From IMG/VR virus record IMGVR_UViG_3300028591_000197: a stretch of DNA of 64,000 nt. One strand, written 5' to 3'. The notes beneath the pieces are model-generated. The model had not been told where the DNA came from. It saw nothing but the letters and a program-made list of their open reading frames with translations, and searched no databases. The translations under genes were made by a program, and so were the position numbers. Source of the stretch: a virus. Within the stretch, counting starts at the first letter, position 1; every line of letters begins with the position of its first letter. Positions 16,812-64,000 of this stretch are shown here, one piece after another.

Positions 16812-17098
16812 ATGACAGAACACGTTGCTCCAGAAAATGAAAAGGCTAGGGAAATGCTAGACAGAATTGTTCAACAAGAGTTATGAATGTCTGCTCAAGA
16901 GCTTTACCTTAGATGACTTGTACAAGAAATTAAACGTTTACAAGAGACACAAGAGAAGTGATACGAAGAAAAACTTTTAAAGTATTACAAAGAAATTGAC
17001 AATATATGCTGATTTTCTAAGGACAAGAGAGATGTTAAAATCGAAACTAAACTTAGAAGTACAGCTGACATTTTTAATTCTACAACTCTTAACTAATG
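16812..17098 (+). CDS. hypothetical protein (about 95 aa)
   Basis: The ATG is preceded by ggaggagga. Its stop overlaps the next ATG (ctaATGg). Confidence 0.45.
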
Positions 17099-37953: not shown

Positions 37954-39606
37954 ATGACAGCAACACAACAAACAATATCTGGAATTCATTTAGGAGACCA
38001 AACTGTCAGGAAGGTTTTTAAATGAGGCGACCAGGTTCGGCCAACAAGTACTCCACCAGCTCCATCTGGTGAGTATATTGAATATAAGATGAGAGCTGAT
38101 AATAGTGGTAATCTATATGTGCCTACTGGTTGATATAGTTCAAGTTGACAATGTAATTGTCCTTATGATTGGAAAGTAAGCATAGACTGATGAACAGAGT
38201 TGCCAGTTTCGTGAACGTGAGGTAATAATACTTATGAAACATTTTGATGATATTCTGCTTGAACATCCCATACAATAAAAATTACTCCAAACATAGAAGA
38301 TTACTGATGGGCAAAAGCTTATTGACGATATATAAATAAACGTTCATTTTTAAGAGAAGTTATATACGATGGTAGCTATATGTGATACGCTGTAAGCGCG
38401 ACTGATACTGGTAACTACTTTAGATATTATCAATATTATGGATGTACAAATCTAACATTAGCTCCTAATGAAGTATTGCCTGATACAGTTACTACAATAT
38501 GAACTTCTTTTAGAGAAAACCAATATGGAAGTTGTACGTCTTTATCTTTAGTTCCTAATGAAGTTATCCCTAATTCTGTAACTTCTATATGAGGTAATTT
38601 TAGATGCGCTCAATATGATGGTTGTAGTTCGTTAACTACTGCTGCGAATGAGGTATTACCAAATTCTGTAACAACGATAGATTCTAATTTTAGAACTAGA
38701 CAATATAGTAATTGTTCAAATTTAACTACTGCTGCGAATGAGGTATTGCCAAATTCTGTAACATCTATATGATATAACTTTAGAACTTATCAATATTCTA
38801 GGTGTACATCATTAACTACAGCTCCAGCTGAAGTTTATTCTAGTTCAGAAACAGATATATGAGATAGCTTTAGATATTATCAATATTATGGATGCACTAG
38901 CTTAACTACAGCAGCCACTGAGGCGCTTCCAGCTTCTATAACTACGATATGAGTATGATTTAGAGAAGCACAGTATGAATGATGTACGTCCTTATTAACT
39001 ACGGCAACAGAAGTATTTACTAACTCAGTTACAAGAATTGAGAGCTCATTTAGAAGGCATCAATATTATTGATGTACGTCATTAACTACAGCATCGCCTG
39101 AGGCAATGTCTAATCAAGTGACACGGGTTTGAAGTTATTTTAGGTCTTATCAATACGATTGATGTAGCTCTTTAGTTACGGCACCACAAGCAAATAATGG
39201 TTCTATACCTTGAATTGGTATGGTATATAACTTTAGATATTATCAATTTGCAAATTGTACTTCATTGGAGATTTGAGCTGAAGAGGATTTGCCAACTTGA
39301 GATTCTTGAGTTTATGGAAGTAGCGAATTAAGTTGTCAATATAGATGATGTCCTTCGCTAAGATATATTATTCTTCACGCTTGGCCAATCTCTCATTCTG
39401 ATATTTACTTTAGAATTAATCAATTTAAAGATTCTTGAAATAACTTAACAATAAAAATAGTTTGAAATTCTGTGGACTGAGCCTATAATAGTGCCTGATT
39501 AAATCCTGATAATGTTAACGAGATTCAAGTTCCTAGTGCGCTTCTTTCCGCATATCAGAGTGCTTCTAACTGGAGTGCTGTAAGCTCTAAATTCGTATGA
39601 TATTAA
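37954..39606 (+). CDS. BspA-like leucine-rich-repeat protein (about 550 aa)
   Basis: About 12 tandem 23-aa units of the form FRxYQYxGCTSLTTAxNEVLPNSVTSIGxN. Its N-terminus shares the KVFKGGDQVRPT module with the fibre paralogs. Confidence 0.55.
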
Positions 39607-39633
39607 TTTTAAATAAATAACATAAAGATAATT

Positions 39634-40317
39634 ATGTCTTTAATAGCACATTACCCTCTAATAGCTAATTGAAACGATACAGAGGGAAATTATAATTTAA
39701 CCAACTCTAACGTGGTACCTTTTACTCAAGTACAATGAGTAACTTGTGCGAAGTTTAGTGGTATTGACTACCAATACCTTCACGTAAGCCAATTCCCATT
39801 TTCAGGAGATATAGAACTCTATGTTAACTTTTGGATGTGTAGCACAACGAATAATTATTCTAACTATCCATCTGTCATATGATTAGGTACTACACAACAA
39901 TGAAATGAAAATTTCTGTGTACGAATTAGTCCTGATTATGGTAGTATATTATGTACTTGATGATGGGATTGTGACGCTCATTCAAACTATGTAGTTCCTA
40001 CAAATAAATGGATTAATGTAGCTGTAGCATATAAAGACTGAGCTATAAAAATGTATGTAAATGGAGAGAATAAAATAGATGCAACTATCCCTTCATATAA
40101 TATTACTTGATGAGAATTCAGCGTTTGAGGTCAACCAACTTGAGGTTCAATATTTACGTGATGAGTAAGTGATTTGTATGTCTATGATGCAATTCCAGCT
40201 AATCTAGAAACAGAAATAGTCGACCATTATAACGCTACAAAATGAACATATATAAAACCTAAATTTAATCTTCATTCTATATTTGGGACCTTTCATAAAA
40301 AAACTTCCACTATTTAA
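39634..40317 (+). CDS. LamG / concanavalin-A-like lectin domain protein (about 227 aa)
   Basis: Carries WINVAVAYKDGAIKMYVNGENKIDAT...GGEFSVGGQPTGG, the typical Laminin_G_3 pattern. Confidence 0.45.
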
Positions 40318-40337
40318 TTAATAATGAACAATTAAAT

Positions 40338-41711
40338 ATGACACAAATATTTAAATGAGATGCGTCTATAAGAAATGTTCGTTTATGAGGGCAGACCATT
40401 TGAAAGGTGTTTAAATGAGATGGACAAATCCGACCAACATACATTCCTCCAATAGATTATCACGTAATATGAGATTTTACACAATGAAGTGCTCCTAGTT
40501 GATGGGACTGTTCTGGTGTATCATTTACTGCCGATTGAATAACTGTCGGTAGTTGAGAGCCTTATTGAATGGTAGTCAATTCTTCAAGCTCTGCACAAAA
40601 TCCTTTCCCATCTCTTAGTAATGCTAAATTAGTTGTAATGGATGTTTCATATGAGTGTTTATGAAATTCTTGAGATAGGATACAGGCTCAGTTTATAAAC
40701 TGATGACAAACTGTTGTAGTATGATTATTAGATAGTAATTGAGTTTGAGCCAATATGGATGGCGACCCTTTTATTCAAAACGAAGATTGAGCAATTACCG
40801 TATACACAGAAGATGTATTTAAAGTAACGTTATCTTTAAAACAGCAGACTTATGATTATGAACAATATCTACAAGGCGTTTATTCACACGTATGACAATA
40901 CTGAACGGGAGATACGATAACAACAGCTGATGTGTGAGCGATTAGGGGAATAAACTGATTAGCTATTTCGTTCAACTGAAGTGTTTGCATAAAATCTATA
41001 GATGTATATGTTTATATTGACGATGAACCTGTTGTAGTAACTACTCCTTGAATATATCATAATGCCTCTTTAGGATTAATCTCTTTATCAGATGCTAATT
41101 GAGAGAACCGAGTAACAATAGCTGATAAGAACCTATGAGCTTCTAAAGTCTATGACCCAGACGACCCAAATCCTGATTTATGATATTGCTATCAGTGGTG
41201 AAACAATTGTCCAGATTATTCAAGGACTTGATGGACTGACGCACTTAGAGATGCTTCTAGTTATTGACCAAATCAACCTTTCTATAGTACAACTTGGACT
41301 AATCCAAATTGGTGAAATTGGGACAACCCTGCTAATAATAACCTTTGGTGATGAGAAACTTGAACAAAGGAAGCGATGAAATGACCTTGTCCTATTTGAT
41401 TTAATATATGAGATAATAGCGTAAATCAATGAGCTCCAAATGGTTCTCAATGGACAAGAATAGGATATAACTTTAATAGTTTATATGCCAATAGTTCAAA
41501 TTATTTACTTGCAGATGAAAATGATAATCGATGGTCTGCGACTGCAAATATTGATACTCACGCATACGTTATCTGTTTTGGCGCTAATTGACGTTTAGAT
41601 ACAAATACTTGAATGTATAAAACATATACAAGTTATCATATTCGTCCTATAAAAAATACTTCAGTAATTCCAGATTCATCTTGGACTCCTTTATATCAAC
41701 TTAGTAATTAA
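40338..41711 (+). CDS. tail fibre / adhesin (about 457 aa) with the conserved N-module and a Fib_succ-like C-domain
   Basis: N-terminus MTQIFKGDASIRNVRLGGQTIGKVFKGDGQIRPT. Also ADKNLGASKVYD...GYCYQWGNN, GPCPIGFNIG and ...IRPIKN. Confidence 0.5.
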
Positions 41712-41712
41712 A

Positions 41713-43137
41713 ATGTGAGAAATAATTATTGATTCAAATTATATCTCTAAAGTAAAACTAGGAGATACAAACGTAGGGAAAGTCTATAAAGGTGATAATC
41801 AAATCTGGCCAAGGATACAAGTAGCAAATTATCATATGATGCGGGACTTCACAAATTGAAGCGCTCCTAGTTGATGGAGTTGTACATCTACTTCATTTAC
41901 TTCTGAATGAGTAAAAGCAACTGGTAGCAATGTATGAGTAATGGAATTTAGTCTTCCTTCTGCCGCATTAAATTCACTTAGGAATGCTCAATATGTAGAA
42001 TTTCTTGTACATTATTTTTGAGAGACAACCAGTTCTCAAATAAGAGTGCAATTATTGAATCCTAATGAAGTATATCCTGTATTATGATTTAATTTTGGTA
42101 GTGATTGATGAGATGTGCGTTATAGAGTTGCTAGCCAAAGTTTCGGCTCTTATGACTCTTGGGTATATGGACATAATGTTTCTAGAATAGCTCTTGACTT
42201 AATCCATCCTTACCAGTGATATAGTGATGGAAGAAAGCTTTTATATCAATGTATCTATAATGTATGATGACGATGAGAGCGTGCTACATATGAAGATGCA
42301 GTAAAGCTTAGATGAGCCACAACACTTGAAGCAAGAATAAAATGAGATTGTTATATAAAGTCTATAGAATTAATCTCCATAAGTACAAATCCTGCTATAG
42401 CTCCTTGAATATATTGGAATGATAGTATGTTATGATGAATGCTCTCTATGTCAGATAATTGATATCAGTGGATTTCTATAGCAGATAAGAATTTATGAGC
42501 TAGTAGTGTATATCGTAGTTGAACTCCTAGAGATTCTACCGCTTGATATTTTTATCAGTGGTGAAATAACTATTGACATTCTCATTGATGAGTCGATAAT
42601 CCTACTGATAAATTAATATGATATGCTGCAGACATACCAAGCCACTGACCAGGAAATTATTTTAGATACCCAGCATTTAGTTGAGTAGGACAATGTACTT
42701 GGTCTAAAGAATATAATTATAATCTTTGGTGAGATACTACGGATACAAATGCTTGAAGGCAATGACCTTGTGATAGTTGATTCCATATTCCATCTGTATA
42801 TGAAGCAATGAAATTTAGATTTTATTGGCGAAGTTTAATATATCGACGGCAATGACACTCTGGCTTATCATTGGACGATTTGTTTGCCCCTACGTGATAT
42901 TATGAAGGTGGCGATTGAAGTTATAGAAGCAGTTCAACATTTTGGCGAACGTCTACGCCATTTAAGCAAATCGATTACCCTTATAGCTGAGATGCTCGGG
43001 GTTTTTCGCTTGGTAATGATTCTGTAACTCGAGAAAGGCTATGTAACAACAGCGGTGTACATATTCGTCCATTCGCAAATGCTTCATACTATCCAAATGC
43101 TTCCTATTGGACTCCTTTATATCAAGCAAGTTATTAA
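41713..43137 (+). CDS. tail fibre / adhesin paralog (about 474 aa)
   Basis: N-terminus MGEIIIDSNYISKVKLGDTNVGKVYKGDNQIWP. Also ADKNLGASSVYRSG...GYFYQWGNNYG, GPCDSGFHIPSVYEA and ...IRPFAN. Confidence 0.5.
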
Positions 43138-43139
43138 AA

Positions 43140-44009
43140 ATGTGACAAATACGTAAATGAGATAATCTTATAAGTGGGGTAAAGCTAGGAGGACAAACTA
43201 TCAGAAAAGCATTTAAGTGAGACGCTCAGATTTGGCCTGTATATGTTCCACCTGTTGTATGAAATATAATTAGTTGTGATTTTACAAATGAAACTGACCA
43301 AAGCCTTATAAGCCAATGATTTCAAAGCGTTTGAGAATCTTATTGATTAACTGTCTCTTGAGACTGAAGTTGACTTAATTGGGTAACTTATGAAACAGAT
43401 ACAGCAAGTGGTATAGAATTCCCATACTCTGCAAGTCTAGTTTGAAAGCAAATATCTTGGACAGCATATGTACATAAACAAGATTTTGACTTATGGTGAG
43501 GACCTAAGTTGACACTACATATGAACCCCACACAAACTGGTCGTAATAAATATAGCAACATATCTTATATACCTTTAGCTTGGGTTGTATGAGAATATGA
43601 TTCAGGCTGGCCTACATATTCTAATGTAGACGCTTGATTTATATCTATATATGGATGAAATAGATACGATTGAAATAAATCTTGAAGTGGACTATATCGG
43701 TGAAGTTTATATGCCCCATCTTGATATGAAAATCTTTGATTCGGAGCTGACGTTTGAACGTATAAAATGGAATGATTTATTGATTTTGATACTTGGGCCT
43801 ATCAAAACACGCGAACTAATCCAAATTGAGACACGTATACTTTTGAAAGATACTTCACTCCATCTGACACATCACAAGAAGCTAAAGCTATAATTAATAA
43901 TAGTTTAGCGTCGTCTAATAAACATTTTTCTATAGAACTTTCTAGATGACGGTGATATCACTGAAGAGATGTTGATAGACGACTGTCTTTATATGTAGAT
44001 GTATATTAA
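43140..44009 (+). CDS. tail fibre paralog (about 289 aa)
   Basis: N-terminus MGQIRKGDNLISGVKLGGQTIRKAFKGDAQIWP. It is very TGA(Gly)-rich. Track ORF 43651.. lies in another frame and is rejected. Confidence 0.4.
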
Positions 44010-44456: not shown

Positions 44457-44558
44457 GCAGGTAATACCGTAGTCAAAAATATTTTAAGACACACAAATAA
44501 TACGATGTGGATAAATTACTTACTTCAAATTATTTTATCTAAAATAAACATTTTAAGA

Positions 44559-45503
44559 ATGGTAGATACTGATAAAACTCCAGAATTAACGGAGGAGAAA
44601 TTAAGAGCATTTGAATGAGCTCTTACATTACCTGAAGATATGGCAGAAGCTACAGACTTTGAAGCAGAGGAAGCTATCAATATAGACTACTCTGTAAAGC
44701 TACCAGATTTCTTTTCTCTATGAGAGTGGATTTATAAGACTTCAAATCAAGGTAGTCTATGAAGCTGTACTTCTATGTGAACAACTCACTGAACTCAAAT
44801 CCTTATGGTAAAGAAAGGGTGAGTAAAGCCTACTAATTCAAATATTGTCACTCCAGATTGGAAAGACTTATGGAGTAAAATGGGACATAGCACAACTAAA
44901 TATGACGGTTGAGACTATGTAGAAACTGCAGTAAAAACTGCACTAAAACAATGAATAAAAACAATAGAAAAATGAGACGAAGTTAAATTTGATTGATATG
45001 CTACATCTGCTTGGGATATGACAGATAAATGTATTGACACTATGAAGAGATACATTTATCAATGATGTCCTATTGTACGATGTGTAAGATGAGATAAAAA
45101 TACTTGGACACAGATGACTAAATGAGAAGTTAAAACTGTGCCTACAACTCCTACGGGATGACATTGTATAGCGCTTGTCGGTTGGGACGCTAACTGATTC
45201 TGGTTTATTAATAGCTGGAGCGCTAACGATGGTAAAAAACTAAAATCAAGATTCCATATTTCATATAAAGTAATGAAGGATTTTGGTTTGAAATTCAACT
45301 ATAGATATTGGGTTCTCTATGTTAAAGAAGATGCAAAGAAAGACCCAGAGTATCTAAAAAGAAAGAATATAGCTTTAATAGTATTACAGGTTCTAAAGAA
45401 ACAATATAACTGAGAATCAGCTGATGTACAGAAAGCTATAGTATCTCTGAGTCAAGCATTAAGAAAAGCTTACCCAGAAATAAATGAAGATTTACCTCTA
45501 TAA
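44559..45503 (+). CDS. papain-like (C1-type) cysteine peptidase; candidate endolysin (about 314 aa)
   Basis: NQGSLGSCTS, GGHCIALVGWDANG and FWFINSWSANDG resemble the C1 catalytic Cys, His and NSWG motifs. The gene sits immediately upstream of the holin. Confidence 0.45.
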
Positions 45504-45537
45504 TAATTTATTTATGTGAGAAGTTTCAACAGGGGGA

Positions 45538-45987
45538 ATGGTTGCCTCAATAGCTTGAGGTGTCTGCTTAGCTTGAATATTAGAATATTTTCAAGTTAGT
45601 TGTGAGACAGTAATAATCCTCTTTGTTATGCTTGCGCTAGATTATATATTTTGAATACTAGATGCCTACTTAAGAGATAGGAATAGTGTTACAAGTGACC
45701 AAATGCGAAGATGATTCTGGAGAAAGATGACTAGATGGATGTTGCCTTTGATAGTTATAGCTATACTTAGATGAGTTGGAGCGGGGGATTTACAAATGGC
45801 TTCAACTGTAATCTATTCTATTCTAATTATAACTGAAGGGTATTCTATTATAGGACATTTCTTCTCTATTAATACAGGTAAAGAATTACCAGAGATAGAT
45901 GCGTTTGAAATGTTAATCAAATTTATTACAAATCTATTAAAAGGTAAATTGCCTGAAGTTAAAGATAAAGATTTAGATGAAGAATAA
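45538..45987 (+). CDS. holin, Phage_holin_4_1 (LL-H / TcdE-like) family (about 149 aa)
   Basis: Carries LALDYIFGILDAYL followed by hydrophobic helices and a charged C-terminus. Track ORF 45796..45987 is its 3' part. Confidence 0.55.
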
Positions 45988-51416: not shown

Positions 51417-51606
51417 AAAGTGAATATTAGGAATACAGCACTTAACGATACTATGAGTGTTATACATAATATAGTGAAGTTAAGTTCCATCTCCTTCATC
51501 CTCTTTTCAAGTTTGCTATTTTTTGAAATGAGAGTTTCAATTAACCTATTACAACTCTTTATCTGCTCATCCACAGATGTTTTCTCTTGGGTCATAGGTT
51601 GGCTCG
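51413..51606 (-). CDS. small tail-anchored membrane protein (about 64-96 aa); start uncertain
   Basis: Track ORF 51413..51703 ends in a C-terminal TM helix (LNFTILCITLIVSLSAVFLIFTL). Its 5' portion overlaps the 3' end of the upstream gene in another frame. Confidence 0.35.
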
Positions 51607-52235
51607 CAACAGATGTTGCTACAGCATTCGACTTCGTGAACATTTTCTCTATCTGGTTGATAAAAAGATTTCTCCTCCTCTGGCCAACCATACCACATTT
51701 CAATTTTACCGTCCCTATAACTTATTAGAGGGAAGTTACAGAATTCATCTGATTCTACAGCACGACAGAAAGCCTGAAAGAAATCCCATCTTTTTCTTAA
51801 CTTGTAGAAGTTTTGGTCAGCTGAACCGAAAGCTATACTAGCTCAATCTTTTGGTTCTGTTATACTATATTCATCAGCTATCCATAAGGTATCGGTCTTT
51901 GGCTCAAGGAATACAAATGCAGCCTGTGGGTCGCTTGTAAGCTCCTTAAGTTCTTTGTGGGCATCGGCGAGGACTTCCTGGAGAAAGAACTTTAATTCAT
52001 TTGTAGTTTTAAATTTCTTATTTGCAAGTCTATTTTCTACAATGTTTAAAACATAGTCGATGTCTTTAATTGTCCCACATCCTGCAGCAATAAGAGTTAC
52101 ATTTTTTCCTACAATTTCCCTTATCTTAGGGCGATATCAATCTTTAGCACTAGACATTACTTGTCCGATAGTTACAGCATCATCTACAACTAATGTCCAT
52201 CTGTCTCTTACTTTTGTTGCTCAAATAAGTGTCAT
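51549..52235 (-). CDS. hypothetical protein (about 228 aa)
   Basis: Continuous frame from ATG at 52235 to TAA at about 51549 with TGA read as sense. The Cys-rich last 40 aa overlap the previous feature. Confidence 0.35.
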
Positions 52236-52259
52236 TTTGTTTTTGTTTAAGAAAATAAA

Positions 52260-52769
52260 TTAGAAACCACAATATCCTCCGATGAGTTTATATTCTTCTT
52301 CGTTCAAGAAGAAGGCAGGCTGTTTCTCTTCGTTAATTCTTTTTTCTTTGAATTCATTTAACTCAGCATTAGCTTCATCTGTTACTTTCTGATATTTATC
52401 AGACAATTCAGATAGCTGTTTATCTAAGTTAACAAGCTCCTCTTCCTTTTCATTATCCCAATTTCATCCAGCTTTTTCTTTTGCTAACTCGTTTCTTTTG
52501 TCTCCGATAGGTTTCATCTCTTCTGAAATTTTATCCCATTCAGGTTTACATTTTGTTTCAACCAACTCGTGAGCTTTAGCTTCAATCTCTGCTCCTATAG
52601 CTTTGTAGGTATCAGAGGCTTCTAATAGTTCTATAATTTTACTGATTTTCTTTAGGTCGTTGCTAAAGAGATTTACCAAATCTCCGAATGTTACAGAGGC
52701 AATGGTTGTGTGAAGCCACTGGTCAATAAGTCTAGCTTCTTTAATGCTTATAGCAGTTTGTTTTGCCAT
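52260..52769 (-). CDS. helical hypothetical protein (about 169 aa)
   Basis: Track ORF 52464..52769 read through its TGA to TAA at about 52260. Confidence 0.45.
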
Positions 52770-52776
52770 TTTTTTG

Positions 52777-53298
52777 TTAATAATTAGATAAATAGTTTTT
52801 ACATTTTTTTAAATCTTTACTTTTGTGGTCTTCATCTTCATCCCACATCCAATCATTCGAGTTAGTAATTATAACTCTAGTTATAGGGCAATTCCTAATG
52901 TACCCCACATTCTTTGCAAACAATTCAGACACAACAAATTTGTTGTCGTCGGGGATTAATCCTACATCTGTGAATAAATCAAATAGTGAAGTAGCCATAT
53001 TGTCTACATCTCATTTCATTTTATTCCAAGCAATAGAATAGATAAGTATCTTGCACGGAAAATATTCTAGCTTCCAATCAATACCACTTAATTTATCGAC
53101 CATAATTTTATGTCGTTTCATATAGTTCTCGCTAGGCAATACTGTGTGTCAAAACACTCTTTTGCTGTTCTTCTTTGGGAAGATGTTTCAGTAGAAATAT
53201 AGTTCAACTCTATCCTTGCTGTTGTCCGTTACTTCTACATCCATTATATCCCATTTCCATTGTTCGCTAGGACTTAATTCTTTTTTCTTTTTAGGCAT
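52777..53298 (-). CDS. rusA: RusA-like Holliday-junction resolvase (about 173 aa)
   Basis: Carries ...GDVDNMATSLFDLFTDVGLIPDDNKFVVSELFAKNVGY...ITRVIIT. The D-x-DN...D...DD pattern fits RusA. Track ORF 52777..52998 is its C-terminal part. Confidence 0.5.
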
Positions 53299-53614
53299 CT
53301 AGTCAATATTGTAGACGTAAAACGTTTCTTGTATAATTCTTTAGCCAATTGATTATGGATTGTAGGTCAGCAATATCTACATCAAGTATATATCAATGAG
53401 AGAATTCTCATTCAGAAGTTTTTACGTGAACATAGATTATTCAATCTCAATCTGTATGTAGGTCAAAGAATTTTTCTAGCTTCTTAATAGGTTCTTCTAG
53501 CGCATAAAAGGCGCAATCAAATTCTTCTAAGAAGTTTTGTAAAGTTTCAATAATAGCTAAGTCTTGTTTCTCCATTATTCTATTTTTTTGAATAAATTCG
53601 GCAACTCCTCACAT
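53291..53614 (-). CDS. hypothetical protein (about 107 aa)
   Basis: ATG at 53614, with a stop overlapping the rusA start. Confidence 0.35.
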
Positions 53615-53615
53615 T

Positions 53616-54003
53616 TAATTACATACATTTCTGCTCTGTATCAATCTCATCATTTCGTCGTACGTTTTTCTGTGTCAATAAGCCTGAGTATTAATTCTCA
53701 CCTTTCTTGAACTCGCCACTCTCATTTGACATTATATACTATATAGTCTGCTTTGCTAGAATAAATACCTGAAGCTATTCAGCTACATCTTGTTTCTATC
53801 ACAAAGTTTCAAGTGTTCGATGCCATAGTGTCGAATTTAACCTCATAGGTTTCTTCTCAGTCTGGGGTAGTTATTTTAATATCCCAATCTTTAAACTTAC
53901 CTTGAGCGATTTCTAATTTAGAAATCCTTTTAGTGGTAAGTAGAACTTTAGCAAATTCAATTTGTGCATCTTCCCCAATTTTTAAATCGTTTACGAATGT
54001 CAT
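53616..54003 (-). CDS. hypothetical protein (about 128 aa)
   Basis: ATG at 54003. Its TAA stop is immediately followed by the next ATG. Confidence 0.35.
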
Positions 54004-54024
54004 ATTTTTGTTTTTGTTTATAAA

Positions 54025-54468
54025 TTAATTCCAAGAGGTTTTTTTCTTTCTACCTCTTTTCTTTTTAGGAGTTTCTTCTACAGGAGTAGCCTCTATAGTT
54101 TCAAATACAACCTCCTGTTTCTTTTCTTTTTCAGTAATTTTTTCCGTTACCTTAATATCCAATTGCACCATATCACCATCTAGAATAGCATTATTTATTT
54201 GTGATGTTTCTTTGTAGGTGAAAGCATATTGGGTAAAGATTTCAGTAACATCTTCTGGAGATACCAACACAAAGCTAGCTTCGTAAGGTAGCTCTACTTC
54301 ATTTCATAGAAAGAAAGAATAATCTTTTACTTCTCTTTCTACTACAATATGCACAAGCTCTTTCTTTTCTTGTGCTTTATCTATCAACCAATTGATAGCA
54401 TCTACTAATCTATTATAGTCCCCAATACCTGGGGCCCTTCTAATGTAATCTAATTTGAACATCCCCAT
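54025..54468 (-). CDS. hypothetical protein with Lys/Arg-rich (KKKRGRKKK) C-terminus; possible DNA-binding (about 147 aa)
   Basis: Track ORF 54025..54270 extends upstream through a TGA to the ATG at about 54468. Confidence 0.4.
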
Positions 54469-55049
54469 TAGTATGAAGGTAAAACAAAATTGTCTATTGC
54501 TAAAGCATCGGTATTCCTAGTTCCCCTTTTTTTCTTCTTAGGAAGGGGGGCTTGGGACCCCAAGTACTCGGGTTCAGAAATTTTGGCCGGTATTTCGGGT
54601 TCCGCCTCAACAATGACTTTTTTCTCCTTTTGCTCCTTTTTTCTTACGAGAATTTCCTTGTCCAAGGTATCATTCTCAGTTTTAATTCTTTCTAGAGCTT
54701 CTCTTTTAGATTTATTAGCCTCAAGATATTCTTTCACTAAAGTTTTACTTTCTTTAGCAATTACCTTAAATGGCTCTGGTAGTTCTGAGATAGTCTGTGT
54801 ATATAAATCCATAACTATTGTGGCTAGTTGAAACTTGTCCAACTCTATATTGTGATTGTCTAGATACTCTTCACATACCTCAATTAGCTTAGCATTTATA
54901 TCGTCAAGCATATCATCTGGGTCAGCTTTGTTGTGCTTGATGATTACCTCCAATCATACCTTCTCCAAAGAGAACTCTAGTATTCATTGGTACACAGTTA
55001 TAAACTGCTTTAACTCTTTACGAGTTCATTTAGCGGTTGTCTGCATCTT
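54468..55049 (-). CDS. hypothetical acidic protein (about 193 aa)
   Basis: The track ORF uses a TTG start. The frame continues upstream to an ATG at about 55049 that overlaps the end of the sigma-like gene. Confidence 0.35.
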
Positions 55050-55590
55050 CTAAATCATTTTGCTCGATAAATCTTTTTACTTTAGTAGCAATTGTATCTA
55101 CTATATCTCTCACATTATAATATGTGGTTTTCATTAGTCTAGCTATTTCGTACTTTCATCTACCTTCTCATAGATATTGTAGGACTTTAGCCTCAAGTGG
55201 GGTAATCACATTGTTTACGACTAATACATATTGTAGCATATCGACATCCATATCATAGCTCCAGTGTTCGCTATCTCTAATGTCGTCGATAGTATAACTT
55301 TCTGGTCCGAATTGATTGAGTTTGTTATATAACACTCAACCTCATCTATTAAATAGATACCATAGCTTACTGATTTTCTTTTCGTTAGCAACATCTTCTC
55401 TAAGAAGAATGTTGTCTGCGATTAGAAAGCTCTCAGAAAGAATATCATCTTTGGTGTAGGTATAGTTTTTGTGACGTAATAGAGGGTTCTTCCTCATAAG
55501 TAGTTCCATATTCTCGTATAGGAATATTCTACCTTGTTCAATGTCTTTTTTATATAAATCTAATACCCTTTCATAGATATTCTTTTGCAT
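55030..55590 (-). CDS. sigma-factor-like protein with region-4 helix-turn-helix (about 186 aa)
   Basis: The C-terminus LEAKVLQYLGEGRGKYEIARLMKTTYYNVRDIVDTIATKVKRF matches the sigma-70 region 4 / LuxR-type HTH pattern. Track ORF 55342..55623 is its N-terminal part. Confidence 0.4.
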
Positions 55591-55600
55591 TTTTTTGTTT

Positions 55601-56811
55601 TTATTTTGGTAAATTGAGTTCATCTTCTAGGCACCTAGCACAGGTTACCAATGTAACTCATAGGAATTTACTTACACATTCATACATATATTGGTAAGCA
55701 GTTTCAGCCAAGTGGATATAATCTAAATCATCCATCTTTGTATTTAGAACTTCTTGGCTAAATTGATAAATGGCTATAGAATGCTTAACCAAACACCACA
55801 TATGGTCGTCACACTCTATAGCCATTTCCTTTAATTTTCTCATAGCTAATCTTCTCTCCTCCAAGAGGCTTTCCATTTTCATCTCGTGCCATACACTTTC
55901 CTCTTCCAAGTCAGCAGCTTCATCTTCTGAGAAGACTTTTCTGTTGTTTAAATCTACTTGTAGAGAATTGTATAATTCATAATGATGAGAATAGCTAGCA
56001 ATAAGATTAGCAATGAGTTCAATGAGCTCTGTTGCAGCTCAGCGTTGACTATCTTTATTCATTACATTCTATCGAGTGAGCCTTCCGTGGTTTCTATATG
56101 TCCCTCGTGTACTCACACTAAATAATCGTAGAGCTTTTCTTTTACGAATTGCTCTGCTTCATCTCTCTTAACAATATGAGTGATGTTTTGGTGCTGCATT
56201 TTCTTTTGCTTTGTGAATACAAGATAGCTAAACGAAATTGCATCTATATCTGGATGCTGTAGGAATTGGAACCAAGGGTAAAACCTTCATTGATAACATC
56301 AGAAATCTCGTTTCTCTGTTTCGTTCCATTTTTTCTTAGCCGTCTTGCAATCAAACAACATAGCACCATTCATTCACCAATCTATTTCCCCCGTCAATAT
56401 AATCTTATAACCACTAAAGTCTACCTCAACTGCACTCCTAAGGTTTCTTATATCATACATACCAATAGCTTCGTACTGCTCAGATAGAGGTATTAGTTGT
56501 TCTAGTCAGTCGTATAGCCAAGTGAATTGCTTGTCTTCTTCTCAACTAGAAGAATAATATCTCATTCTCTCTGGGTTCATCATACTTCTTGCTATCTCAA
56601 TCTGATGTTGGGCTGCCTCAACTCATTGATTAATTCTAGCAAAAACTATATTCTCCACTAAGTTTCAAACCCAATATGTATTGGCTTTTTTCTTAGGTTC
56701 CAACTCTCCAACGAATGGAGGTGTAGGAACAAGAGCTTTTTCTATCTCAGTAACTGAGACTATGATAGTTTTATAATCTTCCTTAAGAGGTGCAAATTGG
56801 TGATAGAGCAT
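55601..56811 (-). CDS. hypothetical protein adjacent to SSB (about 403 aa); possible recombination or replication function
   Basis: Continuous frame with TGA read as sense. Track ORF 55658..55909 is its C-terminal part. Confidence 0.4.
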
Positions 56812-56827
56812 TAGTAATTATTTTGTG

Positions 56828-57495
56828 AACTAAAACGGAAGTTCATCCGTATCATATTTATTTACAGGAGTTTCTTCTACATCTTCACTGTCACTAACTT
56901 CATTCTTGTAAGTAAGTAACTTAGCACCCCATTCCTGTTGTAGAACTCTTTGTTCTGGAGTTAGAGGTTTAACTGTAGTGAATGATGGGTAAGTGTATTT
57001 AACACTTCAAGTCTTTCCATCTTTAACTTCTTTCAAAGTTACAGTGTTGTTAGCTTCAGCATTTCTGTTCTCATTACTAAATGAGTTCATCCATTCTTGT
57101 GAAGCTGCTCATTTGATACAGAATGTTCTAAGTACATCTGTTTCTTTAGGGTCAATGTAATGTACATTAGTTGTAATCTTTAACCCTAAAGCCTTTACCT
57201 TGTCTTTGATATCCTTCCAAAGTCCTTCATAAAGGATTTCTCAATTGTTACTTCTAACTGTAAATGGGTCATTAGCAAATGAATAGATTTCATTTGACCA
57301 TACTCCACCTTTATCAGCTAAGTATCATTTAATGCTATAACTTTCTGCTATAACAACAAACTCTTTAGGTAAAGTAATTTCTTCTTCTTCTTGTTTGTCT
57401 CTATTCCAAGCGAAGAATTTTCAGTTCTTCCAGTTAGCCCAGGAAGATGAGGGATGTCTAGGCTTATCGCTAGTAGGTTGTCCAAAGATTGGCAT
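56828..57495 (-). CDS. ssb: single-stranded DNA-binding protein (about 222 aa)
   Basis: The C-terminal tail ...EETPVNKYDTDELPF* matches the SSB acidic tip (D-D-D-I-P-F type). The 21-nt repeat abuts its ATG. Confidence 0.6.
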
Positions 57496-57568
57496 CTTTT
57501 TTAATAGGTTAATTAAATAAAGGTAACCCTTTTTTAACGATTTAATTTTCTAAGTCAAGAGGAATTTT

Positions 57569-57853
57569 TTATTTTGTCATATAATATAGATTTTTCAGAG
57601 TCAAGAACCCTGTTTTTTCGTCTGGTGAAAAACATATAGCATCAATCAAACATCACACCTCTTCATTAAGTGATAACACAGACGCTTGTAATGGTGAAGG
57701 TAGGTCTTGTTCTAGAATGAATTGTATCAAAGACTTTGGTAGGTATACAACTCATTCCATTACATCTAGCTTGTCTCTAGTTATAATCTTAATGGTTCAG
57801 TGGTCGTAAACTACGGTGTAACCATTTACTGCTTTATATGGATTTAGTCCCAT
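57569..57853 (-). CDS. hypothetical protein (about 94 aa)
   Basis: ATG at about 57853 and TAA at about 57569. Confidence 0.3.
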
Positions 57854-57866
57854 AGTTGTTTGAATA

Positions 57867-58154
57867 CTAATGTAAAAGTTTTTCTTTCGCAAGTGCGATG
57901 AAACTTTCAGGCTTTGACCTCTCGTAGTCTTTCTCCCCTACAAGTCTAAATCTAATAGTGTAAGGATAATCTTTCCTCATATGGCAAAGGAGCCATCGGC
58001 CCTTTAGACCGAGAAGAAATTCTACTTCGGTAGAGAAGTCTCAGTCGAGTTCATCCGTCCATTCCATTTTGTTTGCTATAGCCTCACGGTATAGCCCCTG
58101 TTTGGTTTCGTTGAATGTCATAGATTTTCGCTTGCTAGATGCTGTGTTTTTCAT
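57867..58154 (-). CDS. hypothetical protein (about 95 aa)
   Basis: ATG at about 58154 and TAG at about 57867. Confidence 0.3.
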
Positions 58155-58229
58155 TACATAATATATTTTTTAAATTCCCCTTGACTTCGAATTGCTAATC
58201 TGTATAAAATACCTCGCTGTCAATATCTG

Positions 58230-58514
58230 CTAGTTGACATTTTCTAATTTTCTATTCCAACTAGCAACTCCGAGGTATCGGCAGACTTTAAATCATTTTG
58301 TTTGGGCTCTTTTCAAGCTCATTCAAACACCTTTGTATTTGTGGGTAAAGGATACATTGGTAATACGATATTGTAGATTGGCTTCTATTTTTAGCCATTC
58401 TCAATTATCATCGGCTATTAAGTAACTCCAACCTTTCTTGTCGGTTGGGGTTGCTACTATTAGCTCATTAGTTAACTGTCTAGTTAAACGCGATAGTGTG
58501 TAATAATTGTTCAT
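58230..58514 (-). CDS. hypothetical protein (about 94 aa)
   Basis: ATG at about 58514 and TAG at about 58230. Plus-strand track ORF 58234..58425 is a shadow ORF. Confidence 0.3.
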
Positions 58515-58546
58515 CAACTCTCAACTAATATAATTTAAAATAGTTT

Positions 58547-58575
58547 GTGATACGAAAGTGGTAATATTACCACTT
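58547..58575. promoter_or_regulatory. perfect 18-bp palindrome AGTGGTAATATTACCACT followed by a T-run, in a gene-poor stretch of about 280 bp (58515-58801)
   Basis: Seen directly in the sequence. It could be a terminator, an operator or an origin element. Confidence 0.4.
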
Positions 58576-58801
58576 TTTTATCTAATCAAATGATTAGAAA
58601 CACTAGGTAGTACCGTTCTGAAAAAACAAAAGACGGTCGGCAAAATATCTAATCGATAAATTGTCCACCGTCTATGTTTAATTCCAGGCATTTCATTTTT
58701 TGTTTTTGTTTTTGGGTAAAGTTTTGATACCAACTACCTTATACTGAATTTAATATTAATTGCAAATGTTTTTTTATAAAGAGGATATAGTCTGTTCTGA
58801 G

Positions 58802-59398
58802 CTAGTCTAGCTCAAGTTTTTTGATTGCACTAGAATAGTTTTTCGTTCGTCACTTACACTCGCTAGTACAATAGTGGCCATTGAGCCAATCTTGCCCAGT
58901 GGTTCTATTCTCTCGTCATTTCTCTACATAGAGATTTACTCGATACTTGATGCTGTCTTCTATAGAAGAAAACTTTCTTTTAATGTATCCATTCGTGGTT
59001 TTCTGCATCAATCAAAAGCCGTTGTTACTAGGATACATCCCCTTCTGGAAGATAGAGCTTTCAGCATTGCTGACCCCTATTACATCCTGAATGCACTTTT
59101 TATAGTTCTTTACTTTCGAAGAGCATTCGTGTACGATAGTATAACTTACATCGTAATTCCCCACAAGCTTGTCAACTTGTTCTGCAAGTTTCTGCTCAGT
59201 CATTTCCCAAGTGTAGATGATTTGTTCCTCTTCCACTTTGGGAGTTGTAGGAACGACTTCTTCTACGGTTTCCCCCGTTAAAACAGATACTTGCATTTCG
59301 TTAATGATATCCTCGGTATGTCCTTGGTTGTATCATAATATGAAGACTAATATAATTACCATAACGGCAATTAAAATCTTCAATCGTTTGTTGGTCAT
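58802..59398 (-). CDS. N-terminally membrane-anchored protein (about 198 aa)
   Basis: Signal-anchor MTNKRLKILIAVMVIILVFILGYNQG. Track ORF 59012..59296 is an internal part. Plus-strand ORF 58874..59281 is a shadow ORF. Confidence 0.45.
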
Positions 59399-59528
59399 TC
59401 GATTTATTAAGAATTAAATCTTCCCAATGTATACTATGTATACAAAGGTGCCGACCATATCCTCTTGCCCTCTTTAGAGTAGCTCCAGATGATTGAGCTC
59501 AATCTCCGAGAACCGTTGCGAACAACTA

Positions 59529-59684
59529 CTACTCTTGGCTGAGGCTTCCACCTCTTCGTACTTTATTTCTCTCACACATTTCTTCATAGCCACACAATGT
59601 TTGGAATAAACATTGACGGCAGCTTTCAATTTGTATTCAATGTTTACAAATTGGGGTCTTTTCTTTTTCTTGGTCTTTTTCCAT
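59529..59684 (-). CDS. small Cys-rich protein (about 51 aa)
   Basis: ATG about 17-26 nt downstream of promoter motif copy 4. Sequence MEKDQEKEKTPICKHGIQIESCRQCLFQTLCGYEEMCERNK... Confidence 0.35.
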
Positions 59685-59700
59685 ATAATCCGTATAAGAA

Positions 59701-59716
59701 ATAAAAGTCTCTATAT
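59701..59716 (-). promoter_or_regulatory. conserved promoter-like motif copy 4 (TATAATCTATATATAG on the minus strand), preceded by an A6 tract
   Basis: Exact 16-mer. This is the only copy in the minus-strand early/replication-type block. Confidence 0.55.
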
Positions 59717-59725
59717 ATAGATTAT

Positions 59726-59949
59726 ATTTTTTAGGCTAATCAGTATAACGCATTATATTAAAAAGTCTATTAGGGAGCTCCTCGCTGTGCTTATTTTGTC
59801 TAAGCTTTTTTATTATCTTCCTATATTGATATGGACGAAGACTTCACCGATATGAAGACTTCTTATTCGTTTTCCATTTGCCCCTTTTATCTTTTCGTAC
59901 GTGACGACAATATGGGCAATGGCAACAACCAAAGCCCATACTTATAAAA
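59726..59949 (-). CDS. small basic zinc-ribbon-like protein (about 74 aa)
   Basis: N-terminus MGFGCCHCPYCRH... Confidence 0.35.
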
Positions 59950-60375
59950 TTAGAAGAATACATTGTAAGTTAAGATTAAATTCCAAATTAAAAAGATTAT
60001 GAATAATACTAATATTGTAGCATCGTGGAAATCAAACTTCCCCTCTAAATCTTTAATCTGTTCATCTTGTCTAACAATTATATCAAGCATCAACTTATCT
60101 ACCTTTTGTAGGTTCGCTATAATATCAATAGCATCTGATAGGTTCTCTGCATCTGTGATTTGGTTTTCCTTTATTGTCTCTATTGCTTTCTTGAATCCTC
60201 ATTCTCAATCAACTCAGAAACAAGCTTCTTCTGTAGAATAGATTCTTTCTGCATACAAATCTAAAACCCTTCCGTGCTCAATAATATCCTTAGCTACTCA
60301 GAAAACTGCTTCATTTAAGAAGTCTAAGTTTTCTCTTGTACTTTCACAAGTACATTCTTTTTTAGGCTGTCTCAT
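59950..60375 (-). CDS. C-terminally tail-anchored membrane protein (about 141 aa)
   Basis: Cys-containing N-terminus and the C-terminal helix ILVLFIIFLIWNLILTYNVFF. Confidence 0.35.
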
Positions 60376-60377
60376 AA

Positions 60378-61052
60378 TTAATTACCATTAAAAACTAAAT
60401 ATACGGTATTTGGATTCAATTCACCGTCTGCTTTCTTCCTCTCATATTCTTCAGAGGTCAAGTAGTTGACACAGTCAGCTATTCCTGCTGTAGGAGTGGC
60501 TCAAGCCGAAATGGCTCAAGCTCTAACCACAGGAGCGTGGTCATAGAGATATTCTCTTTCCCTATAGAATTCATCAATATTACCCATAGTTATTCTATTT
60601 GCATTACCTATCGTGGTTGTGGTTATTGTAGGGTGTAATCTACTTCATTTCTCTATCTCTATTAATTGTAACTCCTCTCTAAAGTATTCTCTAGGTGGAA
60701 ACTGTATTTGTGTTACATTAGGTAAGATAGTACCTTCTCTAATTGGTGACAATTCCATCTGAAGGGCTCTTAAAGTTTCGTTAAATCGCTCACCCAAAGC
60801 CTCATAAATAACTTCCGCTACATCTTGGTTCATATCTCTAGCAAGGTCTGTTAGTATAGAATACAGGTCTGGTCAAGGGACAGTCCAATTAAAATTTGTT
60901 CCATCTCTACTTTGAAACCTTATAACTCAAATAAACTCGTTTGGCTGGAGAGAGGTAGGAGTATTAGGCCACACTGTAATCACAACCCTTCAATGCATAA
61001 ATGTTTTTGAGAGTCTATTTCCCGTATCAATAATGTCGTCTTGCAGTCTCAT
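60378..61052 (-). CDS. hypothetical protein (about 224 aa)
   Basis: Track ORF 60645..60833 extends in both directions through TGA codons. The TAA/ATG junction is contiguous with the next gene. Confidence 0.4.
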
Positions 61053-61056
61053 TTTG

Positions 61057-62043
61057 CTACTTTAAGTAACTAAATATGTGGGCAATTACATCCACAGTTC
61101 GCCCATTCCCCAATTGAATATACCTTTGCGTATCGCTTACAGCACTTGTATAATTATCTGGTAGTGTCTGAAGCCTTTCGCATTCAACAGGCGTGAGCTT
61201 TCTAATTATGTCGCCATTTAACACCACATTCTTCTGGTCTCCACTAGCACAGGTTGTAGTAAGAGTAGGACATTTATCTATATAGCTTGTATACTTTAAT
61301 CTCCTATGTCCAGGTTCATATGGCATTATAGGTCTTCATCTTATTAGTTTAATTCAATTAGACATTTTACCACAGTGTGTAGTAAGAGTTCCCATCTTAT
61401 CATCTGGTCATTTAATGTTAGCAATAGGGTCTTCAAAACCTCACCAATTTGCTATCATATCAACCTGCTTTTGAGATAAGATATATTTCTCATCTACCTC
61501 CTCTAGCAAAACATCTTTCAAAGTTATTCACTTATCCTCTGGTAGTTGTATCTCTACCTTAGCATAAGTCCCATCGTCTTGTAGTTTACCTACCCAATAC
61601 AATCTCTTTCTATTCTGGGCACTAACTAAACTAGAGTTTATCTCTATTGGTGTTATTCACCAGAGTTGCTCGTTGATAATGTTAATGAAATCTTTCTTCA
61701 TTTTTACATTCTCGAGCAAGAAATATTTAGGTTTGTAATACTTGACAATGTCTACAAATTTAAAGAACAATGCACTCCTTGGGTCATTAAAGTTTAGCAT
61801 CTTACCAGCCATACTAAATCACTGACAAGGGCTACCCCCAAAGATTAAATCAATTCAATCTAATGGCCAAGTTTGCCAATCATTAACATCACCCATCTCT
61901 ATAATGTCTGGATGGTTTGTGGTCGCAACTGTAATTGCGTGTTTATCTATCTCACTAGCATAGTAATGAGTGAAGGATATTCAAGCTCTTTTTAATGCTT
62001 CATATCCACAAGCTATTCCGTCGAATAGTGAAAGTACTTTCAT
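61057..62043 (-). CDS. dcm: DNA (cytosine-5)-methyltransferase, orphan (about 328 aa)
   Basis: Motif I LSLFDGIACG, motif IV GGSPCQGFSMAGK, ENV, and the C-terminal QLGNGRTVDVIAHIF. Track ORF 61057..61326 is its C-terminal part. No restriction enzyme partner is seen. Confidence 0.65.
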
Positions 62044-62069
62044 TTTTATTTTTGTTTAAGAATAAAGGG

Positions 62070-62100
62070 TTTTTGTTAGAACAGGGTCAATTCAGGGTCA
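62070..62100. repeat. tandem direct repeat CAGGGTCAATT x2 (= TTGACCCTG x2 on the minus strand), about 35 nt upstream of the methyltransferase ATG
   Basis: Seen directly in the sequence. It is a candidate regulator-binding site. Confidence 0.4.
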
Positions 62101-62257
62101 ATTTTTTATTTATTGATACTGTTTCAAGTATTTATTAGTTCGGACCTAATATATACATTATCGGGTAACTGTGCTACCCCTTTTCAATATTCTATTTCTA
62201 GATATACCCACACACAGAAGATTAATAACTCTATCCCGAGTATGTAAACGAGGTATA

Positions 62258-62626
62258 TCAACCACTTCTGTCGTTTCTCTTTCTCCATCGAGTGATAATC
62301 TTTTCAAGTAAAATAGTTATCTTGTCCCCTATTAGACAGGGAAGACAGAGGTGAATAACCCAACTGTCTTCGTGTGTCCAATATTGTTTACAATGTCTGT
62401 TGCAATACATACAACTCTCTTCACTAATAGCTTCATAATCTTCCATTGTCTCTTCCAATAATTCACTAGCATTACTATCCAATGTAGCATCCATCCTTCA
62501 ATATTTTTCTTTCAAGTCTACCGTCCCCCAATTTATTTCTGCTAGCTCCTTCATTGTGTTATATCGATAGTCGACCCACTTAGCTTTCTTATCTACACTA
62601 GGAGTGAATGGTTTAAATCGTTTCAT
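62258..62626 (-). CDS. small C4 zinc-finger protein (about 122 aa)
   Basis: CMYCNRHC...CLPC. The track ORF extends upstream through a TGA. Confidence 0.4.
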
Positions 62627-62814
62627 TATCCTTTTACTAACTCAATAAAATCATCTAACTCTTTATCAATCATTTCTCTTATGGTATTCTTCAATTCCTC
62701 ATATTGAGTAATTTCTGGGTTATCAAAAGATGGTTCTCATAGGTGGTCTAGATTAGCATAGGAATCAACCACATCCATTATTTCATTAGCTAATTTTTCT
62801 GCTATACTTATCAT
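62627..62814 (-). CDS. small acidic protein (about 61 aa)
   Basis: ATG at about 62814. Its TAA stop overlaps the next ATG. Confidence 0.3.
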
Positions 62815-62816
62815 TT

Positions 62817-63608
62817 TTATTGCATCATCATTATAAATGAGCTATCTTCTCAAGCCATAGTTACAGGTAATTTACCATCCCATCTTTCAATCCATTTTAA
62901 TTTTACATATTCAGCACCTCATTGGTTTTGAATAGCTTTAGCTTGAATTTCAATAGCCTTAGCTTGTGCTTCAGCTGCAACAACTTTCTGCTCAGCTTCA
63001 TACTTCACCTGTTCTAGCTTATTCTTTTCAGCTAATGCATTCTGTTCAGCTGTTACCTTAGCTTCAATAGCATCGTTGAATGATTTAGAGAAGTTGAAGT
63101 TTACAATGTTAAATGATTGAATTTGAATTCCATAAGCATCTAACTTCTTGTTTAAAGCATCTTCAATTTCTTTAGATACAACACTTCTTTCTGTGATTAA
63201 TTGTTCAGCAGAGAACTTAGCTACAACAGATTTAAACACTTCTTGGATAGCTGGTTCTAGAACTTTCTCTTGTACTTTTTCTTCCCTACCTACATTTTTG
63301 TATAGGTTAACTACCTCACTTTCTTTGAATTTGTAATTCACTACAATTGTAGCATCAACAGTCTGCAAATCCTTTGAGCTAGCTTCAGTAACTCATTCAG
63401 CTTTTTGTGTCTGTATATTATATTTTACAGACTTAGTAATGAATGGAGTTTTAAAATGTAACCCATCCGTGTAAACAGTACTGTTAACTTTTCCTAGTGT
63501 AACAGTAAATCAATTGTATCCAGGTTCAACTACAAACCAAGAGTTAAAACCACAGATAACTAGGAGTAAAACGATGATACTCCAACATCAAACCATAAAG
63601 TTTTTCAT
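62817..63608 (-). CDS. SPFH / band-7 (prohibitin / HflC / stomatin-like) membrane protein (about 263 aa)
   Basis: An N-terminal TM helix is followed by EPGYNGFTVTLGKV...GLHFKTPFITKSVKYNIQTQ...TVDATIVVNYKF... and a coiled-coil AEQNALAEKNKLEQVKYEAEQKVVAAEAQAKA. Track ORF 62919..63368 is an internal part. Confidence 0.6.
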
Positions 63609-63641
63609 AACATATATGAATAAAAAAATAAAAACTAATTT

Positions 63642-63797
63642 TTATGGACGAGGTAATTTCCTTATCCAACTTTTAAGCCAATCGCTTATCCAATCACCCA
63701 GTTCACCATCTGTAGCAAGGTCAATCACAACAAATAAGAATAGCAATCAAACAATTATAATCCCTATTATAGGTCCAGTTCACCAAACTTCGTTCAT
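63642..63797 (-). CDS. mini membrane protein B (about 51 aa), paralog of the next gene
   Basis: MNEVWGTGPIIGIIIVGLLFLFVVIDLATDGELGDWISDWLKSWIRKLPRP. Confidence 0.4.
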
Positions 63798-63821
63798 AGT
63801 AATACAAACAAGAAATAAAAG

Positions 63822-63992
63822 TTATTCTTTATCTAATTTTTTATGTAGCCATTCTTTAGCCCTATCCTGTATGAGTTCTGACAACTCCCCATCAAAAAGT
63901 CATAAATCAACTATCATAAATATCACAGAGAGAAGTCCTCCAATAAGGATTATTGCTACTATAGTAAGAAAAATTCAAAGTATTAGTCACAT
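63822..63992 (-). CDS. mini membrane protein A (about 56 aa), paralog of the previous gene
   Basis: MGLILGIFLTIVAIILIGGLLSVIFMIVDLGLFDGELSELIQDRAKEWLHKKLDKE. It shares the TM + DGEL motif architecture with gene B. Confidence 0.4.
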
Positions 63993-64000
63993 AGTAATAT

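Follow-up and report, generated by a model that had tools for sequence, protein, structure and literature searches.

A prohibitin-type SPFH gene in a code 25 phage and the small membrane protein genes that accompany it

Do small membrane proteins encoded beside a phage SPFH gene act together with the scaffold protein, or do they only share its neighborhood? The question is raised by a three-gene locus in the IMG/VR record IMGVR_UViG_3300028591_000197. The window analyzed here is a 64,000-nt stretch of that record, which by its gene content is a tailed-phage genome. A sequence-only reading had described the locus as a phage SPFH (band 7) gene preceded by two tandem paralogous genes for mini membrane proteins, in an nfeD-yqiK-like layout. 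The locus comprises the following elements.

62817-63608, minus strand: SPFH/Band_7 gene, prohibitin-type, 263 aa, five in-frame TGA codons (glycine)
63609-63641, minus strand: spacer between small1 and SPFH, 33 nt
63642-63797, minus strand: small1 (type D), 51 aa, two TGA codons
63798-63821, minus strand: spacer between small2 and small1, 24 nt
63822-63992, minus strand: small2 (type B), 56 aa, three TGA codons

The two small genes lie upstream of SPFH in the same orientation and encode paralogs (BLASTP, 40% identity over 42 aa, E=7e-8), which bears out the tandem pair described earlier. A scan of the same strand found no terminator-like site between small2, small1 and SPFH, and the next gene downstream of SPFH follows after 2 nt. 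The start codon of small2 at 63992 is supported by a related contig (L024), 99% identical over window positions 63810-64000, because a separate gene ends there just upstream of the same ATG. L024 also carries a gene of a further type, A, just upstream of type B, and a third paralog is therefore probable just beyond the window end; an exact 41-mer from that end had no match in IMG/VR. Both small genes are preceded by tattactATG (63798-63821 and 63993-64000, minus strand), with no Shine-Dalgarno-like sequence. This common context may reflect gene duplication or a lineage-specific initiation context.

The frames of SPFH, small1 and small2 are intact solely when TGA is a sense codon. The standard bacterial code breaks all three ORFs at the TGA codons listed above and leaves only fragments of the region, the longest a 149-aa piece of the SPFH gene; every stop that interrupts the minus-strand frame of the region is TGA. 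The sequence-only reading was silent on this dependence of the three genes on TGA as glycine (code 25). Summed over the window, ORFs with a length of 100 aa or more amount to 2,961 aa with table 11 versus 23,625 aa with TGA read through, and reassignment of TAG or TAA gives a far smaller gain. Genes terminate with TAA (47) and TAG (13) only. The identity of the inserted residue is indicated by alignments to four related TGA-recoded IMG/VR contigs, in which TGA and GGN codons exchange in the same columns in both directions (for example, EPxYNGFTVTLGK versus EPGYNxFTVTLGK, KNVxKEE versus KNVGKEE and WNxQLP versus WDGKLP, x being TGA), while tryptophan columns keep TGG. The TGA codons of SPFH likewise align with glycine in relatives, and a methyltransferase motif in the window reads PCQxFS, with x again TGA. 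Over 126 aligned ORF pairs, window TGA stands opposite glycine 72 times and tryptophan 10 times in relatives; against standard-code loci, the counts are 14 and 0. TGA and GGN together make up 8.5% of codons in the plus-strand arm and 5.3% in the minus-strand arm, which are normal glycine frequencies, and TGG accounts for 1.4-1.6% of window codons. Code 4, in which TGA encodes tryptophan, was ruled out by the alignments and codon statistics. On this evidence, TGA is read as glycine throughout window positions 1-64000, that is, in genetic code 25. TGA is also the commonest glycine codon, with 62% of glycine-type codons in the plus (late or structural) arm versus 43% in the minus arm.

A search for a suppressor tRNA in the window found none, and the window itself holds no tRNA. 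In L013, a close relative, positions 4099-4175 encode a tRNA with anticodon UCA, one of an array of eight tRNAs located ~4 kb upstream of the small-gene cassette. The acceptor stem of this tRNA has G1:C72, C2:G71, G3:C70 and U73, which we take to be the glycine identity set. The phage lineage would, therefore, supply its own UGA decoder even though its host already reads UGA as glycine. Given code 25, the host is a bacterium from the CPR (candidate phyla radiation), belonging to the Absconditabacteria or Gracilibacteria. Phages of these two groups that use code 25 have been described (Liu et al. 2023, mBio, PMC10746230); like them, the window is dense in in-frame TGA codons and yields almost no gene calls in code 11. 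Neither SPFH nor prohibitin genes are mentioned in that study.

Translated in code 25, the SPFH product gives a clear match to the Pfam profile Band_7 (PF01145; residues 26-200, E=1.2e-32, 113.8 bits against a cut-off of 23.6), the check that the sequence-only reading had named, and to PHROG family phrog_200 (E=2e-49). Residues 3-21 are hydrophobic (Kyte-Doolittle mean 2.3) and form the predicted N-terminal transmembrane (TM) helix. Among solved structures in the PDB, the best matches are prohibitin-2 (E=2e-29) and prohibitin-1 (E=8e-27) over residues 22-241, the alignment reaching through the coiled-coil to residue 241. The architecture proposed earlier, an N-terminal TM helix followed by a PHB-like core and a coiled-coil, thus agrees with profile, structure alignment and hydropathy. 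HflC follows behind the prohibitins in the PDB (E=3e-11), and no stomatin or flotillin chain was found there at E<=1e-3. Against the HflC equivalog TIGR01932, the protein scores 46.5 bits (E=2e-12), below the cut-off of 134.4. Of the earlier assignment to a prohibitin/HflC family, the prohibitin part therefore stands and membership in the HflC equivalog does not. These matches settle the fold and identify the protein as a prohibitin-type SPFH/Band_7 membrane scaffold.

With PHB1/PHB2 and the bacterial p-prohibitins (SPFH4), the predicted protein shares its best structure matches, a single N-terminal anchor and, to judge by the charged N-extension found in the long form of SPFH, a non-cytoplasmic SPFH domain. 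It is encoded by a single gene, and a homo-oligomer is therefore expected, unlike the PHB1/PHB2 heteromer. The HflK/HflC-FtsH system has a historic link to phages through lambda CII turnover. By analogy, the window protein would share the cage topology of that system (N-in, dome outside), in line with its weak HflC similarity; it differs in falling below the equivalog cut-off and in lacking a paired HflK-like gene.

SPFH proteins with an N-terminal TM helix, a Band_7 core and a coiled-coil are already known from tailed phages. Members of phrog_200 occur in the Alteromonas AD45 phages, Fusobacterium Fnu1, Faecalibacterium Toutatis, Rhizobium RHEph10 and the T4-like 44RR, Aeh1 and RB43, and SPFH genes were listed for T4-like phages as early as 2006 (PMC1524935). 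A tblastn search found homologs in 62 phage records of GenBank; each has less than 40% identity, and their annotations read prohibitin, HflC/K or band 7 protein. In the literature that we found, no function is assigned to any phage copy. The window copy is set apart from these by its divergence, by its code 25 phage background and by a dedicated family of small TM genes. A megablast search of window positions 52000-64000 against GenBank phages gave no match, and the PADLOC defense profiles matched neither SPFH nor small1 or small2.

Much closer relatives were present in the protein database, where 2,240 sequences matched SPFH at E<=1e-20 and the best 120 of these were each at least 73% identical. 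The relatives fall mainly into two length classes, of about 260 aa and about 295-309 aa. A scan of GTDB genomes recovered a copy with 73% identity on a contig of a metagenome-assembled genome (L065, CAMVNG010000003.1; 3992-4783). This copy equals the region of metagenome locus L042 (3492-4283), the two being 73-74% identical to phage SPFH. Its neighbors comprise gltX, an rsmI-like gene, tRNA-His, secE, nusG and rplK, all with TGA for glycine; the SPFH gene follows tRNA-His directly and precedes a gene for a 505-aa membrane protein, beside secE-nusG-rplK. It has no small TM or NfeD-like neighbor. Overall, phage SPFH is 73-79% identical to copies in code 25 bacterial chromosomes, and the gene has therefore been exchanged with the host. 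We think transfer from host to phage the more likely direction, with some doubt because the chromosomal copy adjoins a tRNA gene.

The two small proteins matched nothing in Pfam, PHROG, NCBIfam or PADLOC. In each, a single segment of strong hydrophobicity (mean Kyte-Doolittle about 3.0), with no K or R on its N-terminal side, leads into an acidic linker, D-L-x-x-D-G-E-L (D-L-G-L-F-D-G-E-L in small2, D-x-x-D-G-E-L in small1), and a tail. The tails extend 23-35 aa beyond the TM helix, are amphipathic and carry four or five K/R residues. That of small1 is Trp-rich, amphipathic and basic, with a hydrophobic moment of 0.83, and that of small2 is charged and helical, with the sequence SE(L/I)IQDRAKEWLHKKLDKE, identical in four genomes save for one L/I change. 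By the positive-inside rule, we infer that both proteins insert N-out/C-in. The TM helix and the DGEL motif noted earlier are present in both window proteins; exact conservation of the motif did not hold up, since orthologs carry DMEL, DLEL, DMEF or GGEL.

Orthologs of the small genes were detected in more than ten contigs with E values of 1e-13 to 1e-24. Those of small1 (P0004-P0007) adjoin SPFH in L013-L021, and those of small2 are P0001-P0003 and P0008. Pairwise ratios of nonsynonymous to synonymous substitution (dN/dS) were 0.13-0.43 in 15 of 16 comparisons, indicating that the genes are under purifying selection. A lack of conservation in related genomes, which the sequence-only reading had named as evidence against its view, was thus not observed. 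Relatives carry up to three paralogous small types: A, B (small2) and D (small1), with type A a distant paralog of the window genes (hmmsearch, E=2e-5 to 3e-4). The small-protein alignment, used in a word-indexed search of 5.8 billion proteins, returned five clusters, and a full HMMER scan of 1.84 billion representatives returned five at E<=1e-3, three of them new. A search of IMG/VR for relatives of small1 and small2 found none. When the type-D and type-B tails were searched for as degenerate DNA patterns, 42 IMG/VR loci came back, all of which a hidden Markov model showed to be chance matches. The family thus appears absent from IMG/VR, which seems to hold only those SPFH phages of the lineage that carry a long N-extension. 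By these searches, the family is narrow, previously undescribed and confined to this phage lineage; its members are predicted bitopic membrane proteins about 50-60 aa long.

Wherever the small genes were found, SPFH was close by. All eight clusters found through the small proteins lie on contigs with a Band_7 gene beside the small gene, and in every contig recovered by small-protein searches the distance to SPFH was within about 0.9 kb. The same limit held for every family member detected at loci selected by SPFH instead. In L022, L035, L039, L040 and L044, the small gene sits directly downstream of SPFH, and that of L022 has a different genomic context and is still adjacent to SPFH. Other relatives show the orders A-B-C-D-SPFH, A-B-D-SPFH, A-D-C-SPFH and A-D-x-SPFH. 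Among the small TM genes of three relatives lies an 86-88 aa gene that is unrelated to the family and not found in the window (L013, 8195-8455; L016, 3459-3719; L018, 554-820); in its product, a zinc-ribbon-like motif (CxHD...CKKC) comes after an N-terminal TM helix. L018 further carries an IS605-type OrfB/TnpB gene (Cas12f-like; 1820-2860) just downstream of SPFH, at the site of a 62-aa gene of the window.

A second pattern emerged from a census of 55 code 25 SPFH loci, which we scored for an N-terminal extension of SPFH and for genes of the small family. Thirteen loci, representing eight distinct core sequences, encode a charged extension of 56-72 aa, and none of them has a small-family member; the charged extension of these phage relatives is otherwise put at roughly 45 aa. 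Most phage loci with a short N-terminus have one to three. In a neighbor-joining tree of SPFH cores, the extended state appears in two separate clades, one of which is sister to the clade with the small gene downstream of SPFH. The extension is K/R-rich (13 K/R) and would therefore be cytoplasmic, which leaves the SPFH domain on the outside, the arrangement of prohibitins and HflK/C; the extension would then be on the same face as the predicted tails of the small proteins. In four long-N loci (L001-L004), a conserved protein of 287-289 aa without a Pfam match is encoded about 870 nt upstream of SPFH, in place of the small TM genes.

We put the chance at about even that SPFH and the small proteins form a real functional partnership acting as a membrane module. 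In such a module, SPFH would be anchored N-in and, by analogy with solved prohibitin and HflK/C complexes, would assemble on the host cytoplasmic membrane, at its outer face, as a ring or dome fencing off a membrane patch. The TM helices of the small proteins might lie at or inside the ring, with the amphipathic tails on the cytoplasmic face, the side on which SPFH variants without small-gene neighbors would carry their N-extension in cis. During infection, the module could reorganize or stabilize the host membrane or tune FtsH-type quality control. A more specific version is tentative and, taken as a whole, somewhat unlikely: the small proteins would form a class of SPFH partners that is new and has no relation to NfeD, co-assembling through TM helices with the phage prohibitin ring and providing in trans the amphipathic or charged cytoplasmic-face element that sister phages carry in cis as the N-extension. 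The result would be a two-component scaffold, split in some phages and fused in others, for taking over the membrane of an ultra-small CPR host.

Several points weigh against a partnership. The carriers of the small genes belong to one phage lineage, with SPFH 78-99% identical, and inherited synteny may therefore explain part of the linkage. In what is a mosaic region, unrelated genes (86-aa TM plus zinc-ribbon, 63-aa and 148-aa) are often placed between the small genes and SPFH, and the copy number and order of the small genes vary as in an accessory-gene island. Three short-N phage loci (L049, L050 and L053) have no family member; as these and the chromosomal copies do without small genes, SPFH does not need them. 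With the tails predicted on one side of the membrane and the SPFH domain on the other, contact would be limited to the TM helices. The neighbor-joining tree carries no support values. Gene identity, genetic code, narrowness of the family and its linkage to SPFH are established, and every functional step beyond them is a proposal. Finally, eight standard-code phage SPFH loci showed no consistent small TM neighbor and no NfeD-sized gene. The pairing of a mini-TM gene with SPFH, which the sequence-only reading had suggested looking for in other phages, thus recurs in code 25 relatives and not at these eight loci, on which we rejected a general rule for phages.

It is possible, though less likely than not, that SPFH and the small proteins are unrelated neighbors. 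The small proteins would then be independent accessory early membrane proteins, serving, for example, in superinfection exclusion, receptor masking or anti-defense, in a hypervariable island that by chance borders on SPFH, and the linkage would reflect shared ancestry only. Close relatives differ widely in gene order, copy number and inserted genes, L018 has its TnpB/IS605 element beside SPFH, the family is missing from some SPFH loci and from the chromosomal copies, and L043, L050 and L064 have other small TM ORFs near SPFH that are unrelated to it. Shared ancestry accounts less readily for the adjacency to SPFH of all eight clusters, for the survival of this adjacency when the small gene changes sides (downstream in L022, L035 and L039-L040) or context, and for the strict absence of the family from long-N-extension loci in two clades.

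A role in lysis can be judged from the genome layout, for which the following features matter.

17096-19141, plus-strand arm: portal gene, phrog_156
45484-45987, strand opposite to the SPFH module: holin gene, phrog_13191, E=3e-10
55030-55623, minus-strand arm: sigma-factor-like gene, weak match
61057-62043, minus-strand arm: C5 DNA methyltransferase gene, phrog_116
62231-62626, minus strand: Cys-rich 131-aa gene, second gene downstream of SPFH
62626-62814, minus strand: 62-aa gene, packed downstream of SPFH

The portal, the holin and the phage-type methyltransferase confirm the phage origin assumed in the sequence-only reading. Genes on the plus strand (1868-51378) are structural or late, and we infer that those on the minus strand (51549-64000) are early or middle genes. 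The three-gene module lies at the upstream end of the minus-strand arm. Small bitopic proteins with charged C-terminal tails, a composition common to many holins and antiholins, could in principle be lysis-timing factors that SPFH restrains or organizes in the membrane. We consider this improbable: the small proteins have no holin match in PHROGs or Pfam, the holin of the phage is encoded 18 kb away on the other strand among late genes, and the module is co-oriented with the DNA methyltransferase and replication-type genes.

Less probable still, and in our view very unlikely, is that the locus is a miniature NfeD-SPFH operon with the small proteins as degenerate NfeD homologs. The defining feature of NfeD proteins is an OB-fold domain at the C-terminus, for which the tails of 23-35 aa are too short. 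Neither small1 nor small2 matched NfeD (PF01957) in Pfam at E<=1. The genes are indeed co-oriented, tightly packed and membrane-anchored, immediately upstream of SPFH as in nfeD-SPFH operons (PMC2636767). In this respect, and in keeping a membrane protein gene linked beside SPFH, the locus resembles YbbJ-QmcA, YqiJ-YqiK and YuaF-FloT. NfeD, however, accompanies stomatin-type, flotillin-type and SPFH5 genes (SPFH1/2/5), with none reported for HflK/C or the prohibitin-like SPFH4 group (Hinderhofer et al. 2009, PMC2636767); the window SPFH is prohibitin-type and so falls in a subfamily that lacks NfeD partners, and its chromosomal homolog has no NfeD neighbor either. What remains of the proposed nfeD-yqiK-like layout is the adjacency of co-oriented genes, at spacings of 24 and 33 nt, without NfeD membership. 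The small proteins would be functional analogs of SPFH partners at most and are, by these comparisons, not NfeD homologs.

That the small ORFs are chance open frames in AT-rich DNA with TGA read through, as their shortness and invisibility under the standard code might suggest, is refuted by their conservation and can be put aside as extremely improbable, given the paralogy (E=7e-8), the orthologs in more than ten contigs, the mostly low dN/dS (0.13-0.43) and a charged tail that is invariant in the four close type-B orthologs compared.

The two genes downstream of SPFH, encoding 62 and 131 aa, are kept after it in several relatives and had no match in Pfam, PHROG or PADLOC. Elsewhere in the window, four plus-strand genes at 37954-44009 share a similar N-terminus, K-W/G-D..I..V.LG.Q.I.KVFKGD.QIRP, and have divergent C-termini; three are adjacent, and a 227-aa gene separates the first. 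From this pattern, they look like alternative tail-fiber or receptor-binding proteins. In L022, genes similar to this set converge on the SPFH module. A 2,767-aa ORF with 158 TGA codons (8353-16656, plus strand) follows a 992-aa ORF and may encode a giant virion or ejection protein. At 44505-45987 (plus strand), a 332-aa protein without a PHROG match overlaps the start of the holin phrog_13191, making a lysis cassette likely; by eye, this protein contains a papain-type Cys/His pair (GSCTSMG ... GGHCIALVGWD).

To our knowledge, almost everything about the biology of CPR bacteria and of their phages has been deduced from sequence, and the present window is unreadable without translation in code 25. 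Phage SPFH proteins as such were already known; the small-protein family and its alternation with the N-extension are, as far as the searched databases indicate, new and restricted to this lineage. The locus offers a phage prohibitin very close to the gene of its host lineage and a family of mini membrane proteins whose presence alternates with an N-extension of the scaffold, together with many natural variants. Without a real partnership, what remains is an ordinary accessory-gene island. If it is real, the locus would provide a simple two-gene system for how SPFH cages select the content that they enclose and a pointer to what a phage needs from the membrane of an ultra-small host.

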